The notes under the pieces: generated by a model
Database searches by the model: none
The model's input: the letters and a program-made list of their open reading frames with translations, nothing else
Told to the model about the DNA's origin: nothing
Translations under genes and position numbers: made by a program
DNA from: a virus
Direction: 5' to 3' (one strand)
Length of the DNA: 64,000 bases
Virus record (IMG/VR): IMGVR_UViG_3300010367_000378
Coordinates: 21,636-85,635 of that record
Part shown: positions 3,057-56,921 of the stretch, in pieces
Layout: each line of letters starts with the position of its first letter
Position numbering within the stretch: position 1 is the stretch's first letter

Positions 3057-3082
3057 GGTGCCTTCGGCTTCCTTCCCCCCGG

Positions 3083-3517: not shown

Positions 3518-3569
3518 GGTCCCGTCCTTTCCTTCTCCTCTGGGTCTCGGATGGGGGTTGATCCCCCCG

Positions 3570-3610
3570 GTTGAGATACTCTATACAAATCTATCGGGCT
3601 TGTATAGACT
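3570..3610. promoter_or_regulatory. Divergent overlapping promoters and inverted-repeat operator
   Basis: ACTCTATACAA (3578-3588) and TTGTATAGACT (3600-3610) are a 10/11 inverted repeat; each strand reads TATACA-N17-TAGA(C/G)T; AT-rich island between divergent genes. Confidence 0.65.
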
Positions 3611-3641
3611 AACCGCAGTTGAGCCCGGAAGGAGGGGCCAG

Positions 3642-3914: not shown

Positions 3915-4117
3915 AGGAAGGAGGCCAGCGTCACCCGTTCGAGGCAAACGGGGAGAGGCTGGCCGCCGAAGGCTTTGCAGTTGAGCCGGGGGGCCGGCTC
4001 TTCCACACCCTGGATGGTAGGTCCCCTGGACAGTTGGCGTCAACCGAGATTCGGGCCGTCCCCGGGGGCGCGGCTCGACATCCACGTCTATGCCCCCGGA
4101 CTGCGAAAGGAGAGGCG

Positions 4118-7249: not shown

Positions 7250-7587
7250 TCGGCCTCGAGGACTCCACCGGCACCCTCGGCATCCTCAACGTCGGCGCCG
7301 GCGACCTGAAGCTCGACCTCGGGCCCGGCGTTCCGGACGAGCAGCGCGCCACCGCGGCGAAGATGGTGGAGGACCTGCTGCGCAACGGCTACTCGATCAT
7401 GGTCGAGATGCCGGATGGCACCTGCAGCCGGGCCACGGCGTTCGACCCCGCCGCTCTCGCCTACGTGATCTCGGAGCCCAAGCCCGCCGGCCGCCGCCGG
7501 GGAAGGCCTCGCAAGGCGACCCCGACGGCGATGGTTCCGGCGGCCACCACCAGAGCGACCGCTGTCGCTCGCTCGGCGGGAGGGTGA
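7246..7587 (+). CDS. Hypothetical protein
   Basis: GTGA-coupled ORF; GILNVGAGDLKL...LLRNGYSIMVEM. Confidence 0.75.
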   Translation: MIGLEDSTGTLGILNVGAGDLKLDLGPGVPDEQRATAAKMVEDLLRNGYSIMVEMPDGTCSRATAFDPAALAYVISEPKPAGRRRGRPRKATPTAMVPAATTRATAVARSAGG

Positions 7588-8342: not shown

Positions 8343-8779
8343 TCTCGGACGTGGACCTGATCTGGGCGGCCGGCCTCTTCGAGGGTGAGGGCACGATCAC
8401 GCTCGCCGTCCGAAATCAGGACGAGACCTACAGACTGTTGGTCATCGTGGGAAACACCGACCGCCAGATCCTGGACTTTTTTCAGGAGCGATGGCCAGGG
8501 TGGCTCCAGCCCGCCTACGGCAAGCGCCCCAGACGGCAGCCGGCGTGGACTTGGACGCTCGCGGCGGGCAAGGCCGAGGCCTTCCTCCGAGCGATTGAAC
8601 CCTACCTGCGCACCGACCGGGTGAAGGACAAGCTGCGTCTCGCCCTGGAGTTCCGTTCTTTTCAGACCACCAAGAAGCGGGAGTGGGGCCGGCCTGAGTA
8701 TCGAGCCAGGCAGCGGAAGCTTTACGCCGCCATGCGGGTGCTCAACCGGCGAGGCATCCCCGAGGAGGCAGCGGCATGA
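8339..8779 (+). CDS. Free-standing single-motif LAGLIDADG homing endonuclease
   Basis: N-terminal DLIWAAGLFEGEGTITL helix, then beta-rich saddle and W-x-W strand. Confidence 0.8.
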   Translation: MISDVDLIWAAGLFEGEGTITLAVRNQDETYRLLVIVGNTDRQILDFFQERWPGWLQPAYGKRPRRQPAWTWTLAAGKAEAFLRAIEPYLRTDRVKDKLRLALEFRSFQTTKKREWGRPEYRARQRKLYAAMRVLNRRGIPEEAAA

Positions 8780-10545
8780 AGAGCCGGGATCTGAAGGTTT
8801 CTGAAGACCTCTCATTGCCTATGGAGGCGGTGACGGAGACGTTCGCGCTCCTCGCTGTCAAGGGGGCAGGCAAGACCAATGCTGGACGCGTCATGGCGGA
8901 GGAGATGTTCGCCGCCGGCGCGCCATTCGTCGTCATCGACCCGGTGGGCTCCTGGTGGGGCCTCCGCGCCGGCCGCGAGCCCGGTGACCCGGGGCTCCCC
9001 ATCCCGATCTTTGGCGGCCGTCACGGAGATGTTCCCCTGGAGCGCGGCGGAGGGACCGTCATCGCGGACCTGGTCGTAGACCAGAGGGTCTCCTGCGTCA
9101 TCGACCTCTCCGACTTCGAGAACGAGGCGCCCAAGAAACAGTTCCTCCTCGATTTTTCCCGGCGCCTCTACCACCGCAACACCGAGCCGCTTCACCTCTT
9201 CCTCGAAGAGGCCGACGACTACGTGCCCCAGACGATGCGGGGGGCGACTTCCGAGAAGGGGGTCGAGCCTCAGCTCCTGCGCGCGATGGAGAACATCGTT
9301 CGCCGCGGCCGGGCCCGCGGGTTGGGAATCACGATGATCACCCAGCGCAGCGCCTCGATCAACAAGAGCGTCCTGACCCAGGCGGGAACCCTGATCGCCA
9401 TGCAGGCGACGTCTCCCCAGGACCGGAAGGCGATTGAAGACTGGGTCAAGTATCACGGCGAGAAGGAAGAGATTCTGGCCTCCCTCTCCTCGCTCAACAA
9501 GGGAGAGGCATGGATCTGGTCCCCCCTCTTCCTCGGTAAGACGGTCCGCATCAGGTTCCGCCTCTCGCATACCTTCGATTCGGGCCAGACCCCTCGCCTG
9601 CGCAAGAGCGCCGCGACTCAGCGGGCGGCGACCCTGGCGGACGTCAACCTGGAGCAGATCCGCTCCAAGATGGCAGAGACGATCGAGAAGGCGAAGGCCG
9701 ATGACCCCAAGGAGCTCCGGGCCCGCATCAGGGAGCTGGAGGCGCAGGCCTCCCGGGACCGGCGCCGAATCGAGACGCTGGAGCGGCAGCTCGAGGCGGT
9801 GCCGAAGAAGCAGCCCGGCCGGCCGGCGGGGCCGCTCCACCCCGGCACCATCCACGACCTGGAGATGCGAGGCCGAGCGATGCAGAACCTCGGCCGGGAG
9901 CTCGAGGAGAGGGGCAAGGATCTCGAAGGCCTGGCTGGCCGCCTCCGGAAGGAAACCGCGTCGGCTGAAGGTACGCCCCCTGCTGCTGCGCCCGCCTCAG
10001 CGCCCGCTGCGCCATCTCCACGGCCGGCTCCTCCTCCACCTCGATCCTCACCCCCGCTGCTCCCCCGCGGGGACGGCGCCAAGCTCGGCAAGTGCGAGAT
10101 CGCGGTCCTCGGCGTGCTCGCCCAGAATCCGGACGGCGCCGACAAGGGGAAGCTCTCGCTCCTCGCCGGCTACCGCTACAGCGGGGGGTTCCGCAACTCC
10201 CTGAGCTCCCTCCGCTCGAGCGGCCTGATCGTCGGCGGCAACGAGGAGGTGATGAAGATCACCGACGCGGGGCTGGCCGCGGCCGACGGGCTCTACGACG
10301 AGCTGCCGCGTGGCGAGGAGCTGGTGGCCTACTGGCTCAACCACCCCTCCCTGGGCAAAGCGGAGCGCGCCGTTCTGCGGACGCTGATCGACCGCGGCCC
10401 GATGAACGGCCAGGACCTCGCGGCTGCCACCGGCTATGGGTACAGCGGGGGGTTCCGCAACGCGCTGTCTGCGCTTCGGACCGCCGGGCTGCTGCTGGGG
10501 AAGAACACGGAGACGATGTCCGTCAACCCGGACCTTCTAGCCTAG
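8776..10545 (+). CDS. HerA/FtsK-superfamily (DUF87/DUF853-like) ATPase with coiled coil and two C-terminal winged-helix repeats
   Basis: Walker A AVKGAGKT, VVIDPVG, Walker B LFLEEAD, RRGRARG..TQR motif; repeats LGKxExAVL..L...AGY.YSGGFRN.LS.LR..GL. Confidence 0.85.
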   Translation: MKSRDLKVSEDLSLPMEAVTETFALLAVKGAGKTNAGRVMAEEMFAAGAPFVVIDPVGSWWGLRAGREPGDPGLPIPIFGGRHGDVPLERGGGTVIADLVVDQRVSCVIDLSDFENEAPKKQFLLDFSRRLYHRNTEPLHLFLEEADDYVPQTMRGATSEKGVEPQLLRAMENIVRRGRARGLGITMITQRSASINKSVLTQAGTLIAMQATSPQDRKAIEDWVKYHGEKEEILASLSSLNKGEAWIWSPLFLGKTVRIRFRLSHTFDSGQTPRLRKSAATQRAATLADVNLEQIRSKMAETIEKAKADDPKELRARIRELEAQASRDRRRIETLERQLEAVPKKQPGRPAGPLHPGTIHDLEMRGRAMQNLGRELEERGKDLEGLAGRLRKETASAEGTPPAAAPASAPAAPSPRPAPPPPRSSPPLLPRGDGAKLGKCEIAVLGVLAQNPDGADKGKLSLLAGYRYSGGFRNSLSSLRSSGLIVGGNEEVMKITDAGLAAADGLYDELPRGEELVAYWLNHPSLGKAERAVLRTLIDRGPMNGQDLAAATGYGYSGGFRNALSALRTAGLLLGKNTETMSVNPDLLA

Positions 10546-13745: not shown

Positions 13746-14230
13746 AGGCGGTGGCGATTCGTTCCGGGGTAGAAGATCCGGATGTCGACACCTCCAGCGA
13801 TCTCAAGATAGAGCCCGGTCCCGATCTCTTCCCCATCCGATCGGCAACCATCTCGTCGAACCGAGGCGGCTGGGTCCTGGGGCACGCCGAGATCTATTTC
13901 GAGCGGGTCGAGGTCCGGGCCCGGTGCCATTTCAACTCCGAGCTCCCGGCTCTCGACGAGCTCGTCGCGCGTGGCGGCCGCTCGGTCAAGAAGACCGGAG
14001 GCGGGGTCTTCGTCGCTCTCGTAAAAATCCTCCCCGGCTTCGTCTCGGTATCGATCGATGACCAGGAGCTGCCGATCATCTCGGTCACGGTCGAGATCAA
14101 ACCGGACGCGCCTGTCGAGGCGAACGTCGTCTTCCCAGATGCCCGCGAGCCTGGCGCATGGACTCCCAGCCTCTGCCGCCGCCTGCTCGAAGCCTGCGGG
14201 TGGGAGTTCTCCCCGGTGGGGGCTGTATGA
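13742..14230 (+). CDS. Hypothetical protein
   Basis: ATGA-coupled ORF. Confidence 0.6.
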   Translation: MKAVAIRSGVEDPDVDTSSDLKIEPGPDLFPIRSATISSNRGGWVLGHAEIYFERVEVRARCHFNSELPALDELVARGGRSVKKTGGGVFVALVKILPGFVSVSIDDQELPIISVTVEIKPDAPVEANVVFPDAREPGAWTPSLCRRLLEACGWEFSPVGAV

Positions 14231-15459
14231 ACTGGTCCGCCCTCTTCAGCAACCAGTTCTTCTCCGGCGGCATCGCCCTGGGCGCGATCGCCGCGCTCGT
14301 AGCGTTCGGCCGCCGCTACGTGGTGCTGCTCGCCGACGTCGTGCGCCGGCGCTTCGTGTCCGAGATCGAGGTCCGCGACGGCGACATGGTGGTGTGGCTC
14401 GGGCTCTGGCTCGCCCACACCCCCTATGGCATCGCCTGCAAGCGGCTCTCGACATATGTCCTCCACCAGGAGGGCGAGGGCGTGCCGCTCCTCTACTTCG
14501 AGCCGGGGATCGGCCCCCACGTCTTCCGGCACGAGGGGACCTTGCTGGTGATCGATCGCCGGCGAGATGAGCCCTCACCTGGTGCGTCGGTCTATCCGCG
14601 CGAGTGGTATGTCTTCCGGGCTTTCGCCCCCCGCGAGCGGGCCGCCGAGCTCCTGGACCAGGCGAAGGTCTTCTCCCGCGAGTTGCTCTCCCGGCGCCAC
14701 ACCGCCTTCCTCTCCGATGGCCGAGGCGGATGGGATCGGATCGGCGTCGGCGTTCCCCGCGAACTCTCCTCGGTAGTGCTCCCGGGCGAGACCATTGGGG
14801 AAATCGTGAAGCGCGTCCGTCTCTTCCAGGATCGGCGCGCCTGGTACGCCGAGCGCGGCATCCCCTGGCGGCTCGGGTTCGGCTTCTTCGGCCCGCCGCG
14901 CACCGGCAAGACCTCCCTCGTCCGCGCGATCGCCCACGACCTGAGCCTGCCGCTCTACGTCCTCGACCTCACCAGCAAGGAGTTCAGCGACAAGGACCTG
15001 ATCCTCACCCTTTCCAGGGTGCCGATCGGAGCCGTGCTCCTGATCGAGGACATCGACGAGCAGCTCGGCTCGAAGTCCTCCTTCGTCACCCTTTCGGGGA
15101 TGCTCAACGCGCTCGACGGACCGCTCGCCTCCGAGGGCCGGATCTTGTTCGTCACCTCGAACACCCCCGAGCGCTTGGATGCCGCGCTCCTGGGCGAGGG
15201 CCGGCTCGACGTCCACATCCACTTCGGGCTCGCCACCCGCGAGCAGGCCGGGCAGATGTTCCTCCGCTTCTTCCCCGGCCTCGAGAAGGAGGTTCAGGCC
15301 TTCGCCGCCGCCCTGCCGGAGGGAGTGATCCCTCCCGCAGCGATCCAGGAGCACCTGGCGGTCCGCTCGGACGATCCCGTCCGGGCGATCGCGGAGGCCT
15401 CGGCTCTCGCCGGCCGGACGTTCAAGGCGGTGGCCCGCGGGGAGGTGGCTGCTGCGTAG
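14227..15459 (+). CDS. Bcs1-like membrane-anchored AAA+ ATPase
   Basis: NQFFSGGIALG TM segment, WYAERGIPWRLGFGFFGPPRTGKT, LLIEDID, TLSGMLNALDG, TSNTPERLDAAL..GRLD. Confidence 0.85.
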   Translation: MNWSALFSNQFFSGGIALGAIAALVAFGRRYVVLLADVVRRRFVSEIEVRDGDMVVWLGLWLAHTPYGIACKRLSTYVLHQEGEGVPLLYFEPGIGPHVFRHEGTLLVIDRRRDEPSPGASVYPREWYVFRAFAPRERAAELLDQAKVFSRELLSRRHTAFLSDGRGGWDRIGVGVPRELSSVVLPGETIGEIVKRVRLFQDRRAWYAERGIPWRLGFGFFGPPRTGKTSLVRAIAHDLSLPLYVLDLTSKEFSDKDLILTLSRVPIGAVLLIEDIDEQLGSKSSFVTLSGMLNALDGPLASEGRILFVTSNTPERLDAALLGEGRLDVHIHFGLATREQAGQMFLRFFPGLEKEVQAFAAALPEGVIPPAAIQEHLAVRSDDPVRAIAEASALAGRTFKAVARGEVAAA

Positions 15460-33397: not shown

Positions 33398-36300
33398 TTA
33401 GGACAATCCGGCCGGATACTTCGCCTCGATCGCTCGAACGAGAGCGGCGACCTGGCCGACCAGGCTGGTGATCGCCGCCCGGTCAGCAGCCCTTTCCTGG
33501 GCTTCCGAGAGCGCCACCGTCGACCGACGGTTCTTCTCCTCGTTGAGCTTCTTCTGTCGTTCCTGCTCGTGAGCTTGACGCTTCCGCTCGATTTCTTCAA
33601 GCGCCCGAAGCACGGCGAGGAGCTCGGGGCCGCACCCCTCTCCACGTTCCGAGACCACCGAGGAAGCGGCCGGCGACGGGGACTCGGACCGAGCGGCCGA
33701 AGCCGTGGAGGGCTGGGAGGGGGAAGCGATGCTTTCGCTGGTCGCCGCCACGATCCTGCTGCCGGAGGAGGTGGTCGAAGCCGTATTGTCCCGGATCGCC
33801 GCGAGCAGGGAGTTGGACTGCTGCAGGTGGTTGACGATCGGGTTGTCGGTCCCGCTGAGGAGCGGGTTGCTCCCGGTGAGCGCCTGGATGGCGTGGGTGA
33901 TCTCGTCCACCACCGCGTTCGAGCCCACGCCGGCGCCGAGGAAGCTCTGGGCGGACGCCTGATAGTCCCGGCCGGCCTGCTCGAGCTGCGACAGGGCATC
34001 CAGATCTCCGGCCCGGGCCCGCGCCAGCAGGTCGCGGAAGTGATCACGCGAGGTCGTGAACTGGTCGGCGCTCGACGTCCGCGGGTCGTTGTGCTGGAGC
34101 TCCTGCAGGAAGGAGGTGAGCCCCGAGGTTGCCTGCCGCCAGAAGTCGTTCAGCGCGTTGACCCGCGCGGCCTCGTAGCGGGCCATATCCTGGGCCGAGA
34201 CCCCGAGCCGGAGGAGCGCGGTGTGAGCGTCGCCGAGCTGCTTCAGCAGGTCGCGGAGCTGGAGCTGGAGGGGGTTCTTGCCGAGGTCCTCCCACCCCTT
34301 CAGGGTCTGGTCGACGAAATTCTCGACGGCCGCCTGGCTGGCGGAGGCCAGTTGGGCGAACTGGTCGGCGCTCGCCCCCAGGGTCACGAGGGCCGCATGG
34401 GCATCGTCGAGCTTGTCCCGGAGATCCTGGGCGTCCTTGACCACTTGGGGGACCGGCAGGAGCCCGGCGATCGTGTCGGAGACGAACTTGTTGACGGCGA
34501 CCTGGTAGGCCGCCTGGAGCTGCGACATCGCCACGGTGAGCTTGCCGCCGGTCCATGCGAGGGCCGCCTCCTGTTTCGACAGGTCGGCCATCTTGTCCTT
34601 GAGGTCCTGCGCCCCCTTGGCCGCGGGCCCGAGGGAGAGCTGGTTCCACTCTTTGACCTGCTGGCCGATCGTGTCGATGAGGGTCGCCGCCTGCGTCCAC
34701 GGGTCGTCATTGCTCTGCTGAGCCTGGGGCCGCTGCGGCGCCGGCCTCGTGAAGTCGGGCTGGTTGGCGGGGTCGTTGATCTCCTTCCGGAGGTTCTCCA
34801 GATCGGCCTTCTGGGCGTCCGTCAGGATGCCGAGCTGCTCGTAGGAGTCGAGGAGGAAATTGAACTGGAGCACCTGCAGCTCGAAGTTCAGCTTGTCCGC
34901 CTCGCGCCGGGCCTTGTCCGCGTCGTCGAACTTGCCCTCCTGCTCCAGGAGGTCGGCCGCCTGGCTGAGCAGGTTCTGGGTCGCCTGCGTCCCGAGCTGG
35001 CTGATGACGTCGTTGAGCCGGCCGGCGGTGATCGCCCCCTTGGCGGCCGAGTCGCGCAGGAAGGCGACGGTGTCCCCGAGTCCCTTGACCTGCTGACGGG
35101 TCTGCTCCATCGGCAGGTTGAGCGAGGAGATCGCGTCTTCGGCGAGCCCGTTCAAGGCACGCAGCTCGGCCTGGTTGAGCTTCCAGAAGGCGATGGCCCG
35201 CTGGCCGGTCTCATCGAGGAGCTTCTGGTTCGCCGCCCGCGCCTCATCGAAGGTCTTTTCGATGTCCCCGGCCTTCGTCTGCCACTGCGACTGCCCGTAG
35301 GTGCCGCCGTCCCCGGGGCCGAGGTACTGGCGGACCGGGTCGAGGATCGTCTTCTTCGTCTGGTCGATCAGCGCCTGCCGGGCCGCGCGGAGCTGATCCT
35401 CCGAGATCTTCAGCTCCTTGGCCTTCTTCGCCATCTCAGCCAGCTTGTCGCCGAGATCGAGAACCGCCTGCACACTCGACGGCAGCCCGAGGCGGGTGTC
35501 GGCCTTGAGCTGGTCGAGGAAGTCCTGCTTGTCGGTGCTCTTGCCCCCTCCGTGGCCGGCGTTCGGCTTCTTGCCCGCGTCGTGCATCGCCGCGTTGTAG
35601 GCATCGGTCCACATGCCGGCGTACTTGTCCCACATGTCGAGGGCGACGAGCTGCATCTTGATCGCCTGGAACTCCAGGTCGACCTTCATCCGGGCGAATT
35701 CGACCCGCTGGGCCTCGTACTTTTGGCTCCCCTGGAGGTACTGGTAGAGCTGGTTGAAGACCGCCATCGACACTTCCTGCTCGGAGAGCGCCTGCGGGAT
35801 CTTGTCGAGCTCGGCCGTGTAATCGGCGATCTGCTGGCGCAGCCGCGCGATCCGCGAGTCCCACTCAGCCTGGGCCGATGCGCGGTCGTCATCGGTCATG
35901 CCGGGGCGGAGCCGGGGGCCGGTGCCCATGCTGTTGATGTCGCTCTGGGTAGCCGCGATCTCGTCCTCGAGCTGCTTCCGGGCGGACTCCCCGGCCTTCT
36001 TCATCTGGTCGTTGAAGGCGACGAGCCCTGCGAGGAAATCGGCGGTGCTGGTGTCGATCCCGAGTGCCTGATTCTTCAGAGACTGGACGGTGTCGGAGAA
36101 CTTCCTGGTGATGCTTTCGACGGCCTGGTCGAGCGCGGCGGCGTCGCCAGCGAAGGTCTTTTTCGCCTGCTCCAGATCGGAGAAATACTGCTGGGCAGCC
36201 GCGGCGACCTGCCCCGAGATGCCGGGGAGATTCTGGGTCGCCAGGCGCTGCGCGAATTCAATCTGGGCCTTGAATTCGTCGAGGTCCTTGCCGGCGTAGT

Positions 36301-39300
36301 CCTTGATCGCCGCGACGACGAGGGGGTCGAGCCCGATGGAGGAGGAGTGCTTGATCGCCTCGATCAGGGCGTAGCTCATCGCCGCCTCGGCGTCCTTGCC
36401 GAAGTTGGTGACGATCCCGTCGACGTAGACCTTCCACTCGGTGTTCTTGCCCTGCCCGCGCCTCTTGACGGCGATCGAGGCGTCCAAGCTCTGGAAGATC
36501 CCGCCGTAGGCGATGAAGAAGCCCTTGATCTCGTCGGCGAGCTTCTTGCCGGCCGTGATCAGCCCGTCGATGTGCTTGCCGCCCTTGTCCATCTGGACGT
36601 CGAGGGCCGAGTTGAAGGAGATGACGCTCTCCTCCGTCTTCTGGAGATGGGCGGAGAGCTTGTTGACCCCGATCGCGAAGACGGCCAGGACCACCACCCA
36701 CGCGGCCACCATGCCCGCGGCGCCGGCGGCGCCGGTACCAGAGAAGAGCCCCGCAACGCCAGAGCCGCTCCCCGCAGCCCCGGTTCCCGCGCTCCCCCAA
36801 AGACCGCCGAGGCCGCTCCCCGTTCCGCCACCGCCCCAGATGTGCCCCGCCTGGCCACCGATCGAGGTCAACCCGCCGGTGACACCCTGGCCCTTCGCGA
36901 GGCCAGCGTTCCCGGCTGCGGCATTTGCCGCCGCGGTTTGAAGGGCCACCGCCGTCGCGAGCTCATGGGCAGCGATCCAGCGGACCAGCCACTGCTCGAT
37001 GTACTGAAGGGCGGTCTTCAGGGCGCTCTGCCAGAAGGACTCCCAGTCGCCTTTTCCGGTTACCAGGGCATCGTTGAGGGTCGAGAGGAAGTTGCTGGAG
37101 ATGGTGCTCCAGGCCTCCTTGAACGGCTCCTCGAGCCACTGCTGGATTTCGGCGTCCGCCCACGTCTTGCGGATCTCGTCGATGAGCTGGTGCTGCTTCG
37201 TGATCTGGGCGGTGAGCTCCTGCTCGGTGAGCTTGTTGTCCTTGCGGTTCAGCGCCGCGGTGACCTCCATCTTGATCTGGAGGTCTTCCTGGGCGTGGCC
37301 GAGGAGCCCGTACTTTTCCAGGATTCCGGCGAGCCCGGCCCCGTAAGCCTTCACGGCGTCGACGTTTGCCTGCCAGTCGGAGAACTGGGCGGAGAGCTGG
37401 TCGCGCTGCTTTTCGGCTTCAGCGTCGAGGCGCAAGGCCTGGGTGTGCCTCGCGAGGGTGTCGGTCTCCCTCTGGTAGTTCTCGTCGGTCAGCTTGATGG
37501 AGGCGGCGAGCGGCAGCCCGGCGATCGCGTTCTGCGCCCGCTGGTCCTTCTCGATCTTGAGAGCCAGGGCGTTCGCCTGCGAGGCGAAGGTCGTCCGGTT
37601 GATGGCGTCCTGGAGCTCCGCTTCGGCGGTCCGGAGGGCGATGCTCTGCTCGTTGGCCGTCTTGATGGAGACGATCCGTCGCTCGATCTCGATCCGATCT
37701 TCAGCGACCGCCACCGCGTGGGCCTTCCAGGCCTGTCCCTCCCGGGAGAGCAGCTCGACCCCAGCAACGATCTGGACCAGCCCGAGCTTGCGGGCCTCCT
37801 GCTCGCCCTTGAAGGCGGCGGCGGCGAGGGTCGAGTTGATCGTGGTGCCGGCGAGCGCGTCCTGGATCTTGGCCTCGCCGTCGACGACCGCCTGGTCGTC
37901 CGAGATCCGCTGCTGCCGGAGAGCGGCGGCCTGGCGCTCGACCACCTGCGCGTCGGAGAGGGCTCGGATGCTCGACCTGATCCCGAGCTCCTCCTCTTTC
38001 GTGAGGGTGGTCTTGTCCTTCTTCGCCTTAGCGGTCGCTTCAATGACCGCCTTGTTCTGCTGCTCCAGGATGACCGCCTGCCGGACCGCCTCGTCCCCGA
38101 TGAGCTGGGCGGCAGCCTGCGCCAGGGTCCCCCGGGCCTCCTCGTTCTTGACGTCGATCTGCTTCTTGATCCAGTCGTGGAAGTTCTCGACGCTCTTGGC
38201 GGCCTTTTCCGTGGTCTCGGTCCCGACGCGCTGGGAGGCCGTCTGGAGGTCGAGCTCGGCCTCCAGGGCGGAAACCGCCTTCGTCGAGGTGGTGATCCGG
38301 TCGTTGTGGAGCTGGAGACTCTTCGCCAGGTTGTCGACGTCGCTCTTCGCGGCCCGCAGGTTCGCCTGGATTTCTGGCCCATACGCCTTCTTGTAGGAGT
38401 CCGACCCGCTCGCGGCGAGGCCGTCCGCGGCGGTCTTGGCGATGTCGAGCCGGCGCTTGGCGGTGTCGAGCAGGCTCTCGAGCTGGCCGGTCTTGGACTT
38501 CTCGTTCTCGATCGCCGCCTTCGAGTTCTCCACCAGCGCCCGGGTCTCCCCCTCGAGGGCAGCGGTCGAGCGGTCGCGCGCGATCTTGGCCGCCTCGAGG
38601 GCGACCTTGTTGGTGCCGGCGGCCTCGGTGGCCTTGGCGTAGGCGAGGTTGATGGAGTTGAGCTGGCCGAGGAAGTTGTCGGCCCCGGAATCCCGCAGCA
38701 CGATGGCCGAGTTGTCGGCCGCGCCGGCGCTCACCTTGGCGGGCCCGGTGATGAGACCCACCCCGCTCGCCCCGAGCGCCGCCTTTTTCGAGACCGCGAG
38801 GACGTCGTACTGCTTGGTGAGCTTCGACAGGGCGATGGCGTTCTCGTTCGCCGCCGCCACTTCGTTGAGGAACGCCTGGTCCCCTTCCTTGCTGGTGGTG
38901 ATGAAGTGGTTGAGCACCCCGAGCAGCACCAGGACGGCCGCCGCCGCGGCGCCGAAGGGATTGGCCTCGATCGCCGCCGTCAGGGACTCGATGCTCGCGA
39001 GGAGCCCCGTGCTGGAGGCGGCCAGGTCGATCTCGGCAGCCTCGGCGACCGTCAGGGACCCCGCGTAGGCCATCATGCCGGCGGAGAGCCCGGCGGTCTG
39101 GGTGATCAGGGCGAACTCGGCCGCGTCGGCCGCCGTGGCGCTCTCGGCGAACGCGAACATCCCGGCGGTCAAGGTGGTCTCGGAGGCCGTGAGGGTGGCG
39201 TTGGCGCCGGCCGCCGAGAGGGCGAACGCTGCGTAGGCGCCGAGGACGATCGGCAGGTTGCCCAGCACCAGCCCAAGCGCGTTCGTGATGAGCATCACGA

Positions 39301-41461
39301 CCCGGAAGGCGCCGGCGACCCCGTTGGCCCACGCCTGCAGGTCGCCGCTTTGGACGGCTCCCCGGATCTCCTCGGCGAGTTGGACGAGCTGCGGCAGGAG
39401 CCCGGAGACGATCTGGAGGGATGCCTCCTCGACCGCCGCCTTCATCTGCTTGAAGACGAACGCCGGATCGGCCTTGACCAGGGCGTAGGCCTCGTCGGTC
39501 GCGTGGCCGATCGAAGCGTTGACCCGGTCCTGGATGCCAACGTACTCCTCGCCCTGACTGGCGGCGGTCGACAGGATGTCGCGCAGCGCCCGGATGTTCG
39601 GCACGACCTTGGCGAGCGCGTCGTTGTTGCCGTCGAACCGCTGGACCAGGTCGAGGAGGGCCGCCGCGAGCCCCTTCTGCTGGATCTCGGTCCGGAGCGA
39701 AGCCACGGAAAGGCCGACCGTCTTGAGCGCCTCGTTGGCGGACTTGGCCCCCTTGACCTCCAGGGCCGAGAGGATGCCGGAGAGGCCGGTCGCGGCCTCT
39801 TGCGCGCTGACGCCGACGCGGGTGAAGGCGGCGATCGACCCGCCGAGATCCCCGAACTTGACCCCCACCGCCGCGGCGACACCGGTTACGCGGGCGAACG
39901 CACCGACGAGGCTGTCGACGGTGGTGTTGCCTTCCCTGGCGGTCGCGATGTAGACGTCGAGGGCCTGCTTGGCGGTGAGGGTGCCGGCCCCGTAGGCGGT
40001 CATCGCGGCCACGGCGCCGCGGGCGACGGTCGTCTGGTCACCGAGCCCGATCGCGGCCCCCTTGGCGCTCGCAGAGAGGGCATCGAGGGCAGCCTGGCCT
40101 CGCAGGCCCGAGGACTCGATGGCGAACGCCGCCTTGGCGTTCTCTGCGGCGCTCTGGCCGGTCTCCAGGGAGATCCCGTGGATCGCCTCCCGGACGCTCT
40201 GGACTTCCTGCGCGGAGGCGCCGACTAGCGTGCGGAGGCGGACCAGGGCGCTCTCGAACTCGATCGCCGCGGCGACGGCCTCCTTGAAGCCCTGGATCAG
40301 CTCGATGATCCCGCCGTAGACCGCCATGTACTTGAGGGCGGTCCCGATCTCACCGATCGCCCGGGAGAGCATTCCGGCGCCGGAGGAGGCCTTGCCGAGG
40401 GTGGCCTCCTGTTCGGCCCGGACCTGCGCCAGGACGGCGCGCTGGTCTTCGAGGGCGATGACCTCCTCGCGGATGGCCGCGGCGCCCTGCTGGTCGATCA
40501 CCACCAGCCGGCCGCGCTCGTTCATCTCGGCGACGCCGGCGGCGAGGAGCTGCGCCTGGATCTCCAACTGCTGGTTGAGGGTGGCCTCGGCGGCGGCCCC
40601 CTGCCGGGCGGCGGCCACCCGGTCGCCGGTCTGGTTGGTGCTGGTGCGGAGCTCGATCAGGACCTGCTGGAGCTTCCTTTCGGCCGCGGTCGCCTGCTCA
40701 GCGGCGGCGGTCTCGGCGGCCCGGTCGGCGCGCACCTTCTCCAGGGCGGTCGTGAGTTGTTGCCAAGCGCGGAACTCGTTGAGCACCGCCCCCGCGAGTC
40801 CGTCCTCGGCGGTGATCCCCGCCTTGACCAGGGCCTCCATTTCGAGGAGCCCCTGCTTGCGAGTTGCGATCGCGGCTGTACCCTCCCGCTCGGCCTGGAT
40901 GTCGAGCTGGAGCTCGGCGCTCAACTGCCGCATGGTCTGGATGTAGCTGAGGGCGCTTTCGCTCCCGAGGAGCGTCTCCTTCCCAAGGAGGCCGGCCCCC
41001 TCGGCCGCCGTCCTGAGCGAGGCGGCGAGCCCCTCGCTCGCCGACATCAGGGTCTCGGTGGATGTAGCCGCCGAGACCGCGCCGCTCGCGACCGACTCCA
41101 GGCCGGTCCCCATGGAACCGAGGGACCCTGCGGACTTCGCGATCGAGGAGTCGGCCGCCGCGACCGAGGAGGCGAGGGTGTCTGTGGACGCCGAGGCGCT
41201 CGCCACCGAGACCTGGGCGCGGCTGACGGAAGAAGCGAGGCTGCTGGAGGCGGAAGCGACCGAGGAAACCGAGCCGGCGACACTGCGGGTGGAGATGCCG
41301 AGGCGCTCGGCGGTCGCTACTACGCTGTCGAGCCTCGCCTGCAGGCGGTCAGCCTGCTCGCCGGTCTTGACGAGGTCGGACTGGAGGGCCTCGACTCCAG
41401 GCTTTGCGGCGCTGGAGTCGAGCCCTACCTTGAGATCGTACTGGGTACCGCCCTCGCTCAA
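33398..41461 (-). CDS. Tape measure protein, 2687 aa (TP901-like core)
   Basis: Length, Ala-rich helical content, FESALVRLRTLVGAS..LETGQSA..AFAIESSG core, position after the chaperones. Confidence 0.95.
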   Translation of the reverse strand: MSEGGTQYDLKVGLDSSAAKPGVEALQSDLVKTGEQADRLQARLDSVVATAERLGISTRSVAGSVSSVASASSSLASSVSRAQVSVASASASTDTLASSVAAADSSIAKSAGSLGSMGTGLESVASGAVSAATSTETLMSASEGLAASLRTAAEGAGLLGKETLLGSESALSYIQTMRQLSAELQLDIQAEREGTAAIATRKQGLLEMEALVKAGITAEDGLAGAVLNEFRAWQQLTTALEKVRADRAAETAAAEQATAAERKLQQVLIELRTSTNQTGDRVAAARQGAAAEATLNQQLEIQAQLLAAGVAEMNERGRLVVIDQQGAAAIREEVIALEDQRAVLAQVRAEQEATLGKASSGAGMLSRAIGEIGTALKYMAVYGGIIELIQGFKEAVAAAIEFESALVRLRTLVGASAQEVQSVREAIHGISLETGQSAAENAKAAFAIESSGLRGQAALDALSASAKGAAIGLGDQTTVARGAVAAMTAYGAGTLTAKQALDVYIATAREGNTTVDSLVGAFARVTGVAAAVGVKFGDLGGSIAAFTRVGVSAQEAATGLSGILSALEVKGAKSANEALKTVGLSVASLRTEIQQKGLAAALLDLVQRFDGNNDALAKVVPNIRALRDILSTAASQGEEYVGIQDRVNASIGHATDEAYALVKADPAFVFKQMKAAVEEASLQIVSGLLPQLVQLAEEIRGAVQSGDLQAWANGVAGAFRVVMLITNALGLVLGNLPIVLGAYAAFALSAAGANATLTASETTLTAGMFAFAESATAADAAEFALITQTAGLSAGMMAYAGSLTVAEAAEIDLAASSTGLLASIESLTAAIEANPFGAAAAAVLVLLGVLNHFITTSKEGDQAFLNEVAAANENAIALSKLTKQYDVLAVSKKAALGASGVGLITGPAKVSAGAADNSAIVLRDSGADNFLGQLNSINLAYAKATEAAGTNKVALEAAKIARDRSTAALEGETRALVENSKAAIENEKSKTGQLESLLDTAKRRLDIAKTAADGLAASGSDSYKKAYGPEIQANLRAAKSDVDNLAKSLQLHNDRITTSTKAVSALEAELDLQTASQRVGTETTEKAAKSVENFHDWIKKQIDVKNEEARGTLAQAAAQLIGDEAVRQAVILEQQNKAVIEATAKAKKDKTTLTKEEELGIRSSIRALSDAQVVERQAAALRQQRISDDQAVVDGEAKIQDALAGTTINSTLAAAAFKGEQEARKLGLVQIVAGVELLSREGQAWKAHAVAVAEDRIEIERRIVSIKTANEQSIALRTAEAELQDAINRTTFASQANALALKIEKDQRAQNAIAGLPLAASIKLTDENYQRETDTLARHTQALRLDAEAEKQRDQLSAQFSDWQANVDAVKAYGAGLAGILEKYGLLGHAQEDLQIKMEVTAALNRKDNKLTEQELTAQITKQHQLIDEIRKTWADAEIQQWLEEPFKEAWSTISSNFLSTLNDALVTGKGDWESFWQSALKTALQYIEQWLVRWIAAHELATAVALQTAAANAAAGNAGLAKGQGVTGGLTSIGGQAGHIWGGGGTGSGLGGLWGSAGTGAAGSGSGVAGLFSGTGAAGAAGMVAAWVVVLAVFAIGVNKLSAHLQKTEESVISFNSALDVQMDKGGKHIDGLITAGKKLADEIKGFFIAYGGIFQSLDASIAVKRRGQGKNTEWKVYVDGIVTNFGKDAEAAMSYALIEAIKHSSSIGLDPLVVAAIKDYAGKDLDEFKAQIEFAQRLATQNLPGISGQVAAAAQQYFSDLEQAKKTFAGDAAALDQAVESITRKFSDTVQSLKNQALGIDTSTADFLAGLVAFNDQMKKAGESARKQLEDEIAATQSDINSMGTGPRLRPGMTDDDRASAQAEWDSRIARLRQQIADYTAELDKIPQALSEQEVSMAVFNQLYQYLQGSQKYEAQRVEFARMKVDLEFQAIKMQLVALDMWDKYAGMWTDAYNAAMHDAGKKPNAGHGGGKSTDKQDFLDQLKADTRLGLPSSVQAVLDLGDKLAEMAKKAKELKISEDQLRAARQALIDQTKKTILDPVRQYLGPGDGGTYGQSQWQTKAGDIEKTFDEARAANQKLLDETGQRAIAFWKLNQAELRALNGLAEDAISSLNLPMEQTRQQVKGLGDTVAFLRDSAAKGAITAGRLNDVISQLGTQATQNLLSQAADLLEQEGKFDDADKARREADKLNFELQVLQFNFLLDSYEQLGILTDAQKADLENLRKEINDPANQPDFTRPAPQRPQAQQSNDDPWTQAATLIDTIGQQVKEWNQLSLGPAAKGAQDLKDKMADLSKQEAALAWTGGKLTVAMSQLQAAYQVAVNKFVSDTIAGLLPVPQVVKDAQDLRDKLDDAHAALVTLGASADQFAQLASASQAAVENFVDQTLKGWEDLGKNPLQLQLRDLLKQLGDAHTALLRLGVSAQDMARYEAARVNALNDFWRQATSGLTSFLQELQHNDPRTSSADQFTTSRDHFRDLLARARAGDLDALSQLEQAGRDYQASAQSFLGAGVGSNAVVDEITHAIQALTGSNPLLSGTDNPIVNHLQQSNSLLAAIRDNTASTTSSGSRIVAATSESIASPSQPSTASAARSESPSPAASSVVSERGEGCGPELLAVLRALEEIERKRQAHEQERQKKLNEEKNRRSTVALSEAQERAADRAAITSLVGQVAALVRAIEAKYPAGLS

Positions 41462-51752: not shown

Positions 51753-51875
51753 ATGAAGAAGAAGCCGCTGTTCGGGGGCAAGAAAGCCGCCCCCTTCGGG
51801 AAGGGTGGTGGCCGGAAAGGGAGTCACCCCAACACGGCCAAGGGGACGCCGCGAAAGAGCAAGGCCAAGAAGTAG
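51753..51875 (+). CDS. 40-aa Lys/Gly-rich basic peptide
   Basis: RBS AAGGAG; MKKKPLFGGKKAAPFGKGGGRKGSHPNTAKGTPRKSKAKK. Confidence 0.65.
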   Translation: MKKKPLFGGKKAAPFGKGGGRKGSHPNTAKGTPRKSKAKK

Positions 51876-51887
51876 GTCAGCAAGCCG

Positions 51888-51907
51888 CCCTCGTCAGACC
51901 ACGAGGG
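51888..51907 (-). promoter_or_regulatory. Candidate bacterial SECIS hairpin (alternative: terminator)
   Basis: CCCUCGU-GGUCUG-ACGAGGG; apical loop begins 21 nt after the UGA. Confidence 0.5.
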
Positions 51908-52757
51908 TTTCCCAGCAGCGTCAGCCATAGTCCAGGCTTGGCGGGTGCTGGACCTTCATGATCTGGAACAACGCCTCGAGCGGGATCGGTCCGACCGCGG
52001 CCTGCGCCCGGTGAAGCGGCCGGACACGTCCATCGCCCTGTGTCCTCCAGACCTTCTTCGCCGTCGGAGGAATGCTTCCTGTCTTCTTCGCCTCGAGCCA
52101 GCTCTGATGCCGGCCGAAAGAAACCGATTCGATGAGCCCGCGGTCGGCAATGGCCTGCGCCCGCAACGCCTTCCCGGCAGCCGCTCGTTCAGCGACGCCG
52201 GCTGATACCTGCTCTGGAGTCAAAGAGCTCGCAGAGGCTCCAGCCCGCCAAGCTTCGACGCGGGCCGCCTGCTTCGGGGTGAGCCCGATGACAGAACGGA
52301 TTTCTTCCCGCAGTCGGCGCAGCGTCTTGAGGCTTTGATTTCCGACATACTCCTGGGCCGCTCGGCCGATCGACTGGCGGATGCCCGCCCTGGTCACGGC
52401 GTCTATCCCCTCGGCCAGGTCAACCGCCAATTGCCGGCCGAACTCCGAGGCGAGCTCCCCGACCCTGGCGCTGAGGGCTGGTGCTGCTGCAGAAGGAAGA
52501 AGGGCGATTCCCTGTTCGAGTCCGGTCTCGACGAGGCTGTGTTCCACCGCCGAGAGCGCCGCTTCGAGACGGGAGCGGGCTGCGATCCATTGCGGGCTGT
52601 TCGTGAGGGGGTTGGGGGAACCCGTCTTAATCCCTGCGTCAATCCGGGCCGCTTTGACGTCCGCCTCGAGGCTGGAGGTGTAGTCCTCGATCGCCGCTGC
52701 CAGGGTGGTCAGCTCATCCTCCAGGCCGGCGTAGGGGTCCTCCTCGACGGCGGACAT
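51894..52757 (-). CDS. MuF/SPP1 gp7-like head morphogenesis protein with in-frame TGA at 51921-51923 (candidate selenocysteine)
   Basis: KKVWRTQGDGRVRPLH..HPPSLDYG-TGA-RCWETLVV-TGA; read-through restores the family CRC motif. Confidence 0.75.
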
Positions 52758-52762: not shown

Positions 52763-54442
52763 TCACGTCCCGATGAAGGATTGAGTCCTGGCCAGCGCCG
52801 AGTTGTCCGCCGCGGCAGCAGGATCAGCACCCCCCGGGCCACCCAAGGCCGCCCTGTTGGCGGCGTCCCACGCCAGCTCCGAGGCAACGTCGAACGTCTG
52901 CTGGTCCACGTCGCCGGCGCGCTTCGCCTCGGCCCAGTAGTTCTTCGGGCTCATCTTGTCGGCCACGAAGAGGGCATGGAGCCTCTCCATCCCGGTGTTG
53001 GGCAGGCCGAAATCGTGAGGGATCGAGACGGCGCCCCGCTTGGGGAGCCCTCCCAAGAGCGCCATGAGGTCGAGAATCCTCTTCCAGGCCTGCTCTTGAA
53101 AGATCACCCACATCTCCAGCGCGGAGGAGGCCTGCACCCCCTGGAGGGTGATCTCGCGGGCGGTGACGGGCCCCGTGGGGCGTTCGACCTGGATCTGGTG
53201 GTGAGCCTTCTCGATGAGGGCGATCTTCCACTCGACGACTTCCATCACGGACTTCAGCGCCGTCCCCTGCATCTCGGCGATCGTCAGCGTTGCAGCCGCC
53301 TCCGTGGAGACGAAGAACCGAGTTCCCCTGGTATCCGGCAGCAGCGGCTTCTTCGTAACAGGATCGAGCCCGACACCGCTCTGGTGGACGAACGCGATCG
53401 TCGCTTCCCGGGCCAGGTTGAGCAACTCGCTGTTGTGGTTCCAGATCGTGTTCTGGGTCCACGCCGTGTCGAGGAAGGGACAGTGGCCGCGGTAGGGTCC
53501 CTTGCGGTCGGTGTAGTGGGGAACCAGCGGGATATCGAGGAGCTCATCCAAGGGGTTGTCGGGGAGGATGAAGCCGCGCTTGGTCGTGTCCTCAACCCAC
53601 TCCCCCTTCGAATTCTTGACGTAGAGTTGGGTCCTGACCTTCCGTTCGTCGCTCCCCTTCTCGGCATCTGGATTACCGGCCGTCACCACCTTGCAGGCGG
53701 GCGTCGCGTCGTCCACCCAGGCGTCGGGGTCCGCAACGTCGACGGTCGTGATCGGCTGGTCGAGAACGATCTGCTTCAGGCGCGGGACTCCGTTGCGGGT
53801 CTCGAGCGTGATGCGCCGAACATGACAGCGCCGGAATTTCGTGACCCGCGGTTGCGCCCCTGCTGCTCGCCGGCTTGCGGGATCGGGAAACTGCCGGGGG
53901 TCGTTGTCGACGAAAGAGAACACGACCCCCTCAAAGAGCGCGTCGGCGAAGGTCTCGGCGGCGTACTCGTCCAGGTTCTGCCCCTCGGCCGTCAGGGTAT
54001 CGACCCACCCAGGCGTCCGATGCACCAGCTCCCCAGAGGGTCCCATCTCGGACTTGCCGGCAAGCTCCTCGTCGTAGCCGGCGATGGTGATCCGGGAGCG
54101 GAAGGGGAGGCGAGCCGTCGATCGGATCGACTCGGCCCAGGGGTTCGGCATGTCCGAGCGGTTGACCCGGCGGAAGTAGAGGGTGTCGGTGAGCCCTGAT
54201 ACGGCAGAGGCGGAGCTCACGGCGCCAGCCGTCGCCGATGGGCCTCCGCCGACCGTGATCACTTCCATCTCGCCCGGGTTCGGCCACATGAAGCGGAAGC
54301 CGCGGGCGTGCTCCCGCATAGCGGTTACGCCCTCCCTCAACGCCACGGCGAGGAGGTGCGCCTCTTCGTCCTTCCGAATCCAATCGCTCTGTTCATCGAC
54401 ACGGCGACGGACCGGACCGTCGGCAGCCTTTGGAGTTTTCAC
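52763..54442 (-). CDS. Portal protein (DUF4055-like)
   Basis: Follows TerL; DAEGQNLDEYA..ALFEGVVFSFVD..IPLVPHY..CPFLDTA..IWNHNSE. Confidence 0.9.
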   Translation of the reverse strand: MKTPKAADGPVRRRVDEQSDWIRKDEEAHLLAVALREGVTAMREHARGFRFMWPNPGEMEVITVGGGPSATAGAVSSASAVSGLTDTLYFRRVNRSDMPNPWAESIRSTARLPFRSRITIAGYDEELAGKSEMGPSGELVHRTPGWVDTLTAEGQNLDEYAAETFADALFEGVVFSFVDNDPRQFPDPASRRAAGAQPRVTKFRRCHVRRITLETRNGVPRLKQIVLDQPITTVDVADPDAWVDDATPACKVVTAGNPDAEKGSDERKVRTQLYVKNSKGEWVEDTTKRGFILPDNPLDELLDIPLVPHYTDRKGPYRGHCPFLDTAWTQNTIWNHNSELLNLAREATIAFVHQSGVGLDPVTKKPLLPDTRGTRFFVSTEAAATLTIAEMQGTALKSVMEVVEWKIALIEKAHHQIQVERPTGPVTAREITLQGVQASSALEMWVIFQEQAWKRILDLMALLGGLPKRGAVSIPHDFGLPNTGMERLHALFVADKMSPKNYWAEAKRAGDVDQQTFDVASELAWDAANRAALGGPGGADPAAAADNSALARTQSFIGT

Positions 54443-54457: not shown

Positions 54458-56707
54458 TCACCACCCCGGAGGACGCGGCATGGCGGCCGACTGCGCAGGG
54501 GGAGGGGGCTCCTCATAGACCTCCTCGTAGGCGTCGACCGTCGCGTCGACGTCGTCGTCGATGCGCCCCTCGTCCCCGGTGAACGACTGCAGGATCTGGA
54601 GCCAGAACGTCCACCAGTCGCCAGCGAAGAGGGCTCCCTTCGCCGCGATCTCCCTGAGCTCCGGGTGGGCCGAGACCTTCTCGCTCCAGTTTTCGACCAG
54701 GTGGGAGATGGCCGGTTCCCAGGAGGCGCCGACGAACTGGATGCCCCCGGGGATGTCCGGCGCCGGCGGTTGGGCCCTGCTCCGGAAGGCGTCGGCGCGC
54801 GCGGCCTTCGCCGACAGGGTCGCCGTCGCCGCCCGGCGTGGGCGCTTGCAGATGATCTCCGGGACCGGCATCCCTACCCAGCCCGCCACCTCCCGGAGAT
54901 AGCGGACGATCTCATCCGCCCACCCCTCGCCGCCGGTGGCGGGGTCGATCGGGATGCGGATCTTGACCCCCGGGCCATCGAGCAGCATCGCCGCGGCGAT
55001 GAGTTGCTTCACGCCACGCGGAGCGAACTGGCCCCGGACGACGTGGCGGAGAATGATGTCGCCGCCAGCCTTCGTTCGACCCATCTTCGAGCCGACCGTG
55101 AAGTCGCCGCCGCCCTCGGTCGAGGCGAGGTCCCAGGCCCGGACGCAGATCTCGTAGATGTCCTCGTTCGCTACGAGCCCGGCGATCGCGGGGTCCCGGT
55201 CGAGGCGGACGAACCACTCCGACTCGAAGTTGCCGCCGCGCTCGACGCCCTTCGGATTCTGCTGGCACTCGCAGGCCGCGATGATCGGCCCCCGGATCTT
55301 GAAGACGACCCGCCATGCGTCGGCGCTCCGGCGCTCTGGCCAGAGCGGGGTCCCCGGCTCGGTCCGGAAGTCCGGCAGGATCTCGAAGAGGGGATACATC
55401 TCCCGGTAGCCGTCGAGCACGGCCGGGTCATAGACCGCGGAGAGGGCGAGGATGCCCCACTTCTCATCGGCCGTGGGGTTTTCGGCGAGGGCGGCGTGGC
55501 TGAGGCCCATGGCGTAGCCGATGAGGTCGCCTTTGTCCCAGCGCGTGACCGTCGCGCAGAGCTTCTGGCGGCGCATCTCGGCGGCGAACATCGACTCGCG
55601 GGCGCGGAGGACGCTGCCGTAGCGGGTCCGTTTCTTCTCCTGGGCACTCTTGTTGACGGCGTCCGCCCAGTCCTGATCCGGATCGTCGGGGAAGACCCAG
55701 GAGGCCGGGTTTCCTGTCTGGCCAGCAGCCATGCCGGCCGACCAGCAGCCGCCTCCTGCCTTCGTCTTCCACTCCTGGACCGCCTGGCGGCCGGGCTCGA
55801 ACTCGCCACCGGACTTCTTGAAGTTGGCCCGGGCGTCCGCGCTCCTCTTGTTCGCGATCTTGGTGTTGTAGGAGACGATCGAGCACCAGTCGCTGGGGAA
55901 CCGGTGGAGGATGTAGGGGACGGCATGACGCGGGCCGGCCTCGGTCTTGCCGTGCTGGGACGGGATAAAGATCGCGAGGTGATCGAAGGCGCCGTCGATC
56001 CAGCGGTCGACGGCGCCGACGATCGAGGGGGTGTGGGGGGCCCAGATGAACTTCCCGCCGAAGTGGCGCTCCAGCCACTCCCGGTAGGATGGGAAGGCCG
56101 GGCGCTTGATCAGCTCGGGGTCGAGATCTTTCGGGTCGAGAAGGAAGACGCGGCGGCCAGAGCTGCCGTTGACGCTCCAGTGTCGAGACACCCAGCCGGG
56201 CTCCAAGGCCGATCGAGCAGCAGCGACGACCCTCCGGAGTGGGTGAGGGCTTGCGAGAGTCGCGTCGCGGAGGAGAGTGAAGACGTGCTCCGAGACGTCC
56301 TCGGCCTGGTCGACGAGCAGCACGTCGGGGCGGCGGTCGAGCGCCTTGAGAGCTTCCGACTCCCGGTTGCAGCCGATCCAACGGATTGAGGAACCATTCC
56401 TGAACCGGATCTCGCCTTGAAGAGCCTCGGCGAAGCCGTGGGACTGCATCTCCCGGACCATCGAGAGAAGGCCGTCCTGGCCGCCGACGTGGTCGCGGTA
56501 GACGTCCGTCTCATCTTTCTGGAGGATCAGGACCGAGGTCCCGTCTCGGGATGTACAGGCCCGGAGCGCCATGGCGCGCAGCAGGTACGACGCTCCGGCC
56601 GGGACACCGCGGGCGGCGCTCGACAGGAGGAGCTCCGGAACACCATCGAGGCGGAGTGCCTCGAACTGCCCGCGGAACAGGCGGAAGATCGATCTTGGAC
56701 GGGCCAC
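54458..56707 (-). CDS. Terminase large subunit with an extra N-terminal degenerate ATPase domain
   Basis: Intact module IFIPSQHGKT..FPDDP..TRWDKGDLIG and RNase H nuclease RAWDLAS..GDFTVG..DDDVDA; first ~200 aa resemble a second terminase ATPase. Confidence 0.92.
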   Translation of the reverse strand: MARPRSIFRLFRGQFEALRLDGVPELLLSSAARGVPAGASYLLRAMALRACTSRDGTSVLILQKDETDVYRDHVGGQDGLLSMVREMQSHGFAEALQGEIRFRNGSSIRWIGCNRESEALKALDRRPDVLLVDQAEDVSEHVFTLLRDATLASPHPLRRVVAAARSALEPGWVSRHWSVNGSSGRRVFLLDPKDLDPELIKRPAFPSYREWLERHFGGKFIWAPHTPSIVGAVDRWIDGAFDHLAIFIPSQHGKTEAGPRHAVPYILHRFPSDWCSIVSYNTKIANKRSADARANFKKSGGEFEPGRQAVQEWKTKAGGGCWSAGMAAGQTGNPASWVFPDDPDQDWADAVNKSAQEKKRTRYGSVLRARESMFAAEMRRQKLCATVTRWDKGDLIGYAMGLSHAALAENPTADEKWGILALSAVYDPAVLDGYREMYPLFEILPDFRTEPGTPLWPERRSADAWRVVFKIRGPIIAACECQQNPKGVERGGNFESEWFVRLDRDPAIAGLVANEDIYEICVRAWDLASTEGGGDFTVGSKMGRTKAGGDIILRHVVRGQFAPRGVKQLIAAAMLLDGPGVKIRIPIDPATGGEGWADEIVRYLREVAGWVGMPVPEIICKRPRRAATATLSAKAARADAFRSRAQPPAPDIPGGIQFVGASWEPAISHLVENWSEKVSAHPELREIAAKGALFAGDWWTFWLQILQSFTGDEGRIDDDVDATVDAYEEVYEEPPPPAQSAAMPRPPGW

Positions 56708-56844: not shown

Positions 56845-56921
56845 AGCGGGATGGCGCAGCCTGGTAGCGCGGCGGACTCATAATCCGCAGGTCGCGGGTT
56901 CAAGTCCCGCTCCCGCAACCA
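56845..56921 (+). tRNA. tRNA-Met(CAU), initiator-like, CCA encoded
   Basis: Full cloverleaf: AGCGGGA/TCCCGCA acceptor, GCGC D-stem, GCGGA-CTCATAA-TCCGC, GCGGG-TTCAAGT-CCCGC, ACCA. Confidence 0.95.

Follow-up and report, generated by a model that had tools for sequence, protein, structure and literature searches.

A recurrent in-frame UGA at an invariant cysteine codon suggests a selenoprotein among the MuF-like head proteins of uncultured phages

The DNA analysed here is a 64,000-nucleotide (nt) stretch, hereafter the window, covering positions 21,636 to 85,635 of the IMG/VR virus record IMGVR_UViG_3300010367_000378, a linear viral contig of 87.9 kb with a GC (guanine plus cytosine) content of 68% and a CheckV completeness of 81%. 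Its minus strand carries, at 51897..52757, a gene for a MuF-like minor head or head-morphogenesis protein, the 287 codons of which include, as codon 279, a UGA placed where homologues have an invariant cysteine. Comparison of this gene with its relatives makes it quite probable that the UGA is decoded as selenocysteine (Sec) by host SelB. The wider conclusion, held with slightly less assurance, is that phages probably encode selenoproteins of their own: exchanges of Cys and Sec at one invariant position appear to have happened at least four times within a MuF-like subfamily, on each occasion with a distinct, host-matched selenocysteine insertion sequence (SECIS) hairpin, which would make a head protein used in assembly or ejected from the head dependent on the Sec machinery and selenium supply of the host. 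An earlier note on this DNA had proposed a candidate phage selenoprotein, and this proposal is supported by the recurrence of the TGA, by its scattered phylogeny, and by hairpins found at five of five TGA loci versus none of ten Cys loci.

Gene callers end the MuF-like gene at 278 amino acids (51921..52757, minus strand, with the ATG at 52757), the 3′ end reading ..HPPSLDYG-TGA. This in-frame TGA (51921..51923, minus strand), in the context GGC UGA CGC UGC UGG, is aligned with the first Cys of the family's C-R-C motif. Past it, the frame continues as CGC TGC TGG GAA ACC CTC GTG GTC, eight conserved codons for R-C-W-E-T-L-V-V (51897..51920, minus strand) that include the invariant Cys281 (TGC at 51917..51915). 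A second TGA (51894..51896, minus strand) then gives the true stop of the read-through open reading frame (ORF), and the alignment places the end of other family members at the same position. This stop covers the last loop base and the first two 3′-arm bases of a perfect hairpin with a stem of 7 base pairs (bp). The ORF ending in ..DYG-TGA, the G-U-R-C obtained by read-through, and the 3′ hairpin had all been described in the earlier note, and each proved accurate when checked against the sequence.

A first pass over four protein homologues and seven IMG/VR loci found G-C-R-C throughout, with TGC at the codon in question and without an equivalent hairpin, so that one change from TGC to TGA seemed the simplest reading until a wider search was made. 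This search, in which a profile was run exhaustively against 1.84 billion cluster representatives, yielded 2841 matches. Four of the 34 best (E ≤ 2e-27), namely P0020, P0023, P0026, and P0036, stop exactly at the Gly before C-R-C, while none of the other 116 among the matches listed stops there. The contigs of the four further TGA forms (L012, with 47% GC, and L013, L014, and L015, with 63–67% GC) all read GGN TGA CGN TGC TGG, equivalent to G-U-R-C-W. Their frame remains open for 9–23 more family-typical codons after the TGA, and their proteins are 30–37% identical to that of the window; R-C-W-[EM]-x-[LI].. is found in all five TGA forms. In the alignment of 34 sequences, five of them TGA forms, column 279 is Cys in all 29 others, and every Cys-form DNA examined has TGC at this codon. 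The statement that homologues carry C-R-C at this place therefore holds, C-[RK]-C being present in 29 of 29 Cys-form subfamily members and in most of the 150 listed MuF-like matches. The alternation of Cys and TGA among homologues, accompanied by a hairpin and a conserved RC, by which the earlier note had wanted its proposal to be judged, is thus found in four divergent homologues that have TGA and the R-C-W tail in frame.

The four additional sequences are partly replicated. The L013 gene is repeated base for base in a second assembly (L027; NODE_9, 69 kb, with a coverage of 32.9 stated in the contig name), and the L014 protein is recorded in two assemblies, in ENA and Logan. All five TGA-form proteins are stored as shortened ORFs. 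Further searches did not enlarge the set: a scan for related loci with the first alignment found none in genome contigs or metagenome contigs, DNA patterns specific to the TGA form matched nothing in viral contigs or metagenome contigs, and a word-based homology search with the 34-sequence alignment returned no additional members. The only genome-contig match to the TGA-form pattern (L016, from an Actinomycetes metagenome-assembled genome) was rejected, as it contains a 13-nt out-of-frame gap and was read as a coincidental match to a different reading frame rather than as a MuF gene. Called ORFs at 4901..5605 (minus strand) of L014 and 6861..7418 (plus strand) of L015 overlap the read-through tails; these calls may stem from the truncated annotation of MuF, or the overlaps may be genuine and constrain the tail.

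A maximum-likelihood tree was computed with IQ-TREE, leaving out the Sec/Cys column. The five TGA forms fall into different, partly well-supported clades among Cys forms, and the nearest relatives of each are Cys forms. Five changes between Cys and TGA are required, and well-supported branches force at least four of them; as the tree is unrooted, it does not show whether Sec was gained or lost. The TGA-form gene of L015 belongs to a head module (1127..5154) different from that of the window, with a Terminase_2 small subunit, Terminase_6N, and Phage_portal (PF04860), so the Sec form of MuF is not bound to one packaging-module type.

Recurrent inactivating nonsense mutations, in defective phages or pseudogenes, might also scatter TGA codons over a tree, or the 278-residue protein might be fully functional, the conservation of the tail reflecting recency only. 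A change from TGC to TGA takes one transversion, and all instances come from uncultured metagenomic contigs. Such an explanation is nevertheless very unlikely, for it would have five independent lineages struck at a single codon out of about 285 and at no other. All five retain CGN-TGC-TGG together with an open tail typical of the family, in association with hairpins; the neighbouring head genes are intact; and two residues that truncation removes are invariant in the family.

Besides the TGA itself, the five TGA forms share a compact stem-loop, with the loop 20–26 nt past the UGA and a G within the first two loop positions. In the window, the upper stem-loop of the proposed bacterial SECIS (51888..51907, minus strand) consists of the 7-bp stem CCCUCGU/ACGAGGG (51907..51901 paired with 51894..51888) and the 6-nt loop GGUCUG (51900..51895), with a local energy of −11.8 kcal/mol. 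Counting the U of the UGA as nt 1, the stem starts at nt 17 and the loop at nt 24, which leaves 20 nt between UGA and loop. An extended stem-loop (51880..51919, minus strand; −16.6 kcal/mol) adds a lower helix, in which the UGC-UGG codons pair with sequence 3′ of the upper stem. The other hairpins are UCUGGC/GCCAGA around the loop CGUGUU in L013 (loop from nt 24), GUCCUUC/GAAGGGC around CGGGA in L014 (nt 29), CAUCGCGC/GCGUGAUG around CGGGC in L015 (nt 29), and UUGGU(U)CC/GGAUCAA around GUGA in L012 (nt 30). The last of these (6829..6888) also has a 9-bp lower helix, formed by perfect pairing of the R-C-W codons (CGA UGC UGG) with CCAGCAUCG about 50 nt downstream; its whole structure, with a minimum free energy (MFE) of −21.6 kcal/mol and z = −3.2, has the most fdhF-like architecture of the five.

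The resemblance to selenoprotein genes of the Escherichia coli fdhF type extends to several features: an in-frame UGA where homologues have Cys, a stem-loop just 3′ of it, a G-G/U opening a small apical loop, and a lower helix that begins right after the UGA. The spacing between UGA and loop is 18 nt in fdhF and 20–26 nt in the TGA forms. The hexamer GGUCUG is common to fdhF and the window, as the earlier note had claimed; in E. coli NC_000913.3 (UGA..GGUUGCAGGUCUGCACC) it occupies nt 22–27, versus nt 24–29 here. Differences are also apparent. The MuF gene is phage-borne and encodes a virion-assembly protein instead of an oxidoreductase, its UGA lies 8–23 codons from the end, and in three of the five genes the SECIS reaches into or beyond the stop codon. 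In addition, the upper stem of the window lacks the bulged U, and a cognate SelB is only presumed.

The position of the hairpins helps to separate a SECIS from a terminator. In L013 and L014, 18 and 23 codons, respectively, separate the hairpin from the real stop. It thus lies inside the ORF and tracks the UGA and not the gene end, which is not the behaviour of a terminator. The window hairpin was not called as a rho-independent terminator on either strand and has no T-run, the tails being CGGCTTGC (minus) and TTTCCCAG (plus). The coding sequence does not force the structure, since near-identical Cys-form tails, such as G-C-R-C-W-D-I-L-V-V-R in L010, have no hairpin.

These results also bear on another account, in which the window contig contains a single sequencing or assembly error, or a private mutation, and the hairpin is a terminator between convergent genes. 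The contig is one metagenomic assembly for which no near-identical relative was found, and a hairpin of this kind can follow a TGA by chance: 2.2% of the TGAs in this 68% GC contig have a perfect stem of at least 7 bp in SECIS geometry behind them. Nevertheless, four other phages have this TGA as well, two of them seen in two assemblies each, neither strand offers a T-run nor the terminator scan a call, and the L010 type of tail encodes almost the same peptide without a hairpin. The probability left to this account is minimal. In the form given in the earlier note (a TGC-to-TGA nonsense mutation or base-call error next to a terminator hairpin), it is effectively excluded by the recurrence of the TGA, by the second L013 assembly at a stated coverage of about 33×, and by the internal hairpins of L013 and L014.

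Genome-wide reassignment of TGA does not account for the in-frame codon either, as TGA is the commonest ordinary stop: it ends 54 of the 94 ORFs in the window contig, and 7–14 genes in each of the four related TGA loci, where it is likewise more frequent than any other stop. No suppressor tRNA or tRNA-Sec was found in the window contig or the related loci. A sub-threshold tRNA-Sec match (28 bits) at 56845..56921 (plus strand), beyond the terminase gene, proved to be a tRNA-Met (CAT), the only tRNA of the contig. A screen of the contig for other in-frame TGA candidates returned adjacent genes or wrong-frame ORFs only.

Three features by which new selenoprotein genes of bacteria are commonly recognized are given in a review of prokaryotic selenoproteomes from 2026: a Cys/Sec pair, TGA-containing homologues in other organisms, and a candidate SECIS. 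All three are present, so the gene qualifies by the standard computational criteria. All five TGA forms also fit the published bacterial SECIS (bSECIS) model, which stipulates a loop of 3–9 nt, an upper stem of 4–16 bp, a G in the first two loop positions, a distance of 16–37 nt from the UGA, and an MFE ≤ −7.5 kcal/mol (PMC13188914). Local hairpin energies range from −5.1 to −11.8 kcal/mol in TGA forms and from 0 to −9.3 kcal/mol in Cys forms, a difference with a Mann-Whitney p of 0.005, or 0.011 when independent lineages only are used. A stricter test (a compact stem of at least 6 bp, a loop of 3–8 nt, and a spacing of 16–30 nt) is passed by five of five TGA forms versus none of ten Cys-form loci, with a background of 9–16% per position and a joint chance of 1.5e-5.

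Several points weigh against decoding as Sec. The published bSECIS model is permissive in GC-rich DNA and has low specificity here, its loose criteria also being matched past the Cys codon in four of six independent Cys lineages. The criterion of the stricter test was set after the data had been seen. The 65-nt fold z-scores of the five loci are −1.0, −3.2, −1.6, −0.05, and 0.0, three of which are unremarkable. The hairpins have no common sequence and fall into two registers, one with the loop at nt 24 and the other with the loop at nt 29–30. The window hairpin taken alone is not rare, and hairpin statistics in GC-rich DNA are of moderate weight only. There are just five TGA instances, all of them from metagenome assemblies. 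A search of the 87.9-kb contig found no selA, selB, selD, or tRNA-Sec. No host could be inferred from the large terminase (TerL) of the contig, which is less than 30% identical to that of any cultured phage, and ESM Atlas offered no host taxa for TerL. Finally, most bacterial selenoproteins are oxidoreductases, and Sec at a possible structural metal site would be atypical.

Further attempts to reach a host gave no match: tblastn found no MuF relative in 50,697 cultured phage records, and no prophage copy was detected in genome contigs, or in 401 Actinomycetota genomes through a six-frame search with the 34-sequence alignment. The hosts of TGA-form phages would be expected to use Sec.

The main rival is Sec-independent read-through, programmed or leaky, at a weak UGA-C stop, perhaps aided by the hairpin. 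A near-cognate tRNA (Trp, Cys, or Arg) would then insert a standard residue, resulting in a fixed ratio of the 278- and 287-residue proteins. All five sites do have UGA-C, reportedly the weakest termination context in E. coli; furthermore, the fold z-scores are weak at three of the five loci, and the Sec machinery of the hosts is only presumed. However, the UGA replaces the invariant Cys codon exclusively, and never the nearby codons one step away from it, W282 (TGG), R280 (CGA in L012), and E283 (GAA). Placement of this kind is residue-specific, whereas leaky read-through would be position-tolerant. Moreover, Trp or Arg at the invariant Cys would destroy the motif, and the geometry of the hairpins fits a SECIS. 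Sec-independent read-through is thus unlikely, albeit less so than the other alternatives.

If the UGA is read as Sec, the following sequence of events can be proposed. During infection, the stem-loop that starts about 13 nt past the UGA would recruit host SelB with Sec-tRNA(Sec). Codon 279 would then be read as Sec, giving a 287-residue protein ending in G-U-R-C-W-E-T-L-V-V, while ribosomes that do not recode would release a 278-residue product that has neither the last strand nor the two Cys/Sec residues. Both the identity of the inserted residue as Sec and the recognition of these hairpins by SelB are inferences from the comparisons above. Since MuF/gp7-type proteins are low-copy virion components, inefficient recoding could suffice. 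In the protein, Sec would take the place of the first Cys in the invariant C-x-C of the family. In this subfamily, the motif sits with the invariant His249, which together with R246 occupies the positions of the CxxC knuckle of canonical MuF proteins. The site made up of H249, U/C279, and C281 might therefore bind a metal through three ligands, Sec being one of them, or act as a U-x-C redox pair in which Sec forms a selenenylsulfide. A link between particle maturation and selenium status, also raised in the earlier note, is speculation.

The assignment to the MuF family is based on profile matches, the alignment, and a structural model. The match to PHROG 3517 ('head morphogenesis') improves from E 2.7e-13 for the truncated protein to E 3.4e-15 when it is read through the UGA, and reaches further into the profile. 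The earlier designation as a MuF head protein stands at the level of the subfamily, through PHROG 3517 and Pfam Phage_Mu_F (PF04233), the latter matching 15 of 34 members at E ≤ 0.01 (best 2.3e-7); for the window protein itself it falls short in Pfam, with 16.1 bits against a cut-off of 29.6. Besides column 279, the invariant residues of the 34-sequence alignment are R199, K235, R246, H249, P273, and C281. Canonical MuF proteins have CxxC ... H-P-x-C-R-C, as seen in the listed MuF-like matches. The P-P and [U/C]-R-C motifs are present in the C-terminus of the subfamily, and the upstream CxxC is replaced by R246..H249 throughout. An AlphaFold2 model (predicted local distance difference test, 96; predicted template modelling score, 0.91) consists of long helices and a small C-terminal sheet, in which the last predicted strand is formed by residues 282–286. 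This strand sits past the UGA and would therefore be absent from the truncated product. Foldseek found no significant match to the model in the PDB, and a profile search found no homologue among PDB sequences.

The gene is thus a minor head gene of a divergent MuF/gp7-like type, and its position after the portal is the one usual for such genes. It lies directly downstream of the portal gene (52763..54442, minus strand; PHROG 145, E 9e-26), which follows the large terminase gene (54458..56707, minus strand; PHROG 38, E 3e-38), and the order TerL, portal, MuF-like gene recurs in L011 and L012. The location right after terminase and portal, the C-terminal P-P..C-R-C, and the PHROG annotation 'head morphogenesis' are shared with phage Mu gpF and SPP1 gp7 (PF04233). 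The window subfamily differs from these in being divergent, in having R246..H249 in place of CxxC, and in having UGA for the first Cys of C-R-C in five members. It also has points in common with the MuF-fused polymorphic toxins of temperate phages, as the Cys-form relatives P0006–P0009, P0011, P0016, and P0019 (488–654 amino acids) have C-terminal extensions past the MuF domain, of 200–360 amino acids and without a Pfam match. All five TGA forms, unlike these, are short and comprise the MuF domain only.

As far as could be found, descriptions of selenoproteins extend to cells and two poxviruses, and not to bacteriophages. Literature searches found no phage selenoprotein, in agreement with the earlier note, to which none was known among phage structural proteins. 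The 2026 review cited above makes no mention of phages or viruses, and the only viral selenoproteins listed in a review of viral recoding are the poxviral glutathione peroxidases (GPx). The poxvirus enzymes, of molluscum contagiosum and fowlpox viruses, resemble the present case in being products of virus genes that depend on Sec insertion by the host, and the SECIS of fowlpox GPx lies within the coding region (PMC8310308). They differ in being captured cellular genes of eukaryotic viruses with a eukaryotic SECIS, whereas the gene considered here is native to the structural module of a phage, with a proposed SECIS of bacterial type and repeated switches between Cys and Sec. If decoding as Sec is correct, this would be the first phage selenoprotein family, and one of few outside redox enzymes. 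Phages would then be able to exploit the UGA-recoding system of their hosts, and TGA-form phages should infect Sec-using bacteria only, which would turn the TGA form into a host-range marker. With several independent hairpins on one protein scaffold, the family would also constitute a test system for the origin of SECIS elements. Moreover, gene callers truncate such proteins, which may also have concealed other selenoproteins of phages.

Downstream of the MuF-like gene, a convergent ORF of 40 amino acids (51753..51875, plus strand), Lys/Gly-rich and starting with MKKKPLFGGKK, is preceded by a strong AAGGAG ribosome-binding site. It stops 13 nt before the hairpin and thus stays clear of the conserved codons past the UGA. 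In the window, this small basic ORF occupies the site after MuF, which has the look of an insertion hot spot. In three Cys-form relatives, a convergent HNH endonuclease gene follows right after MuF (L009, 5517..6131, minus strand, and the contigs of P0003 and P0017), with NUMOD4 and HNH_3 in two of them and HNH_3 alone in one, while L011 has a methyltransferase cassette a few hundred bases downstream of MuF. Elsewhere in the window, a PhageMin_Tail domain (E 1e-23) is found in an ORF of 2687 amino acids (33398..41461, minus strand), which probably encodes a tape-measure protein of unusual length and would imply a very long tail. The plus strand also encodes two ATPases: a BCS1-like AAA ATPase (14158..15459), which has BCS1_N, AAA, and lid domains, and a HerA-like one (8776..10545).
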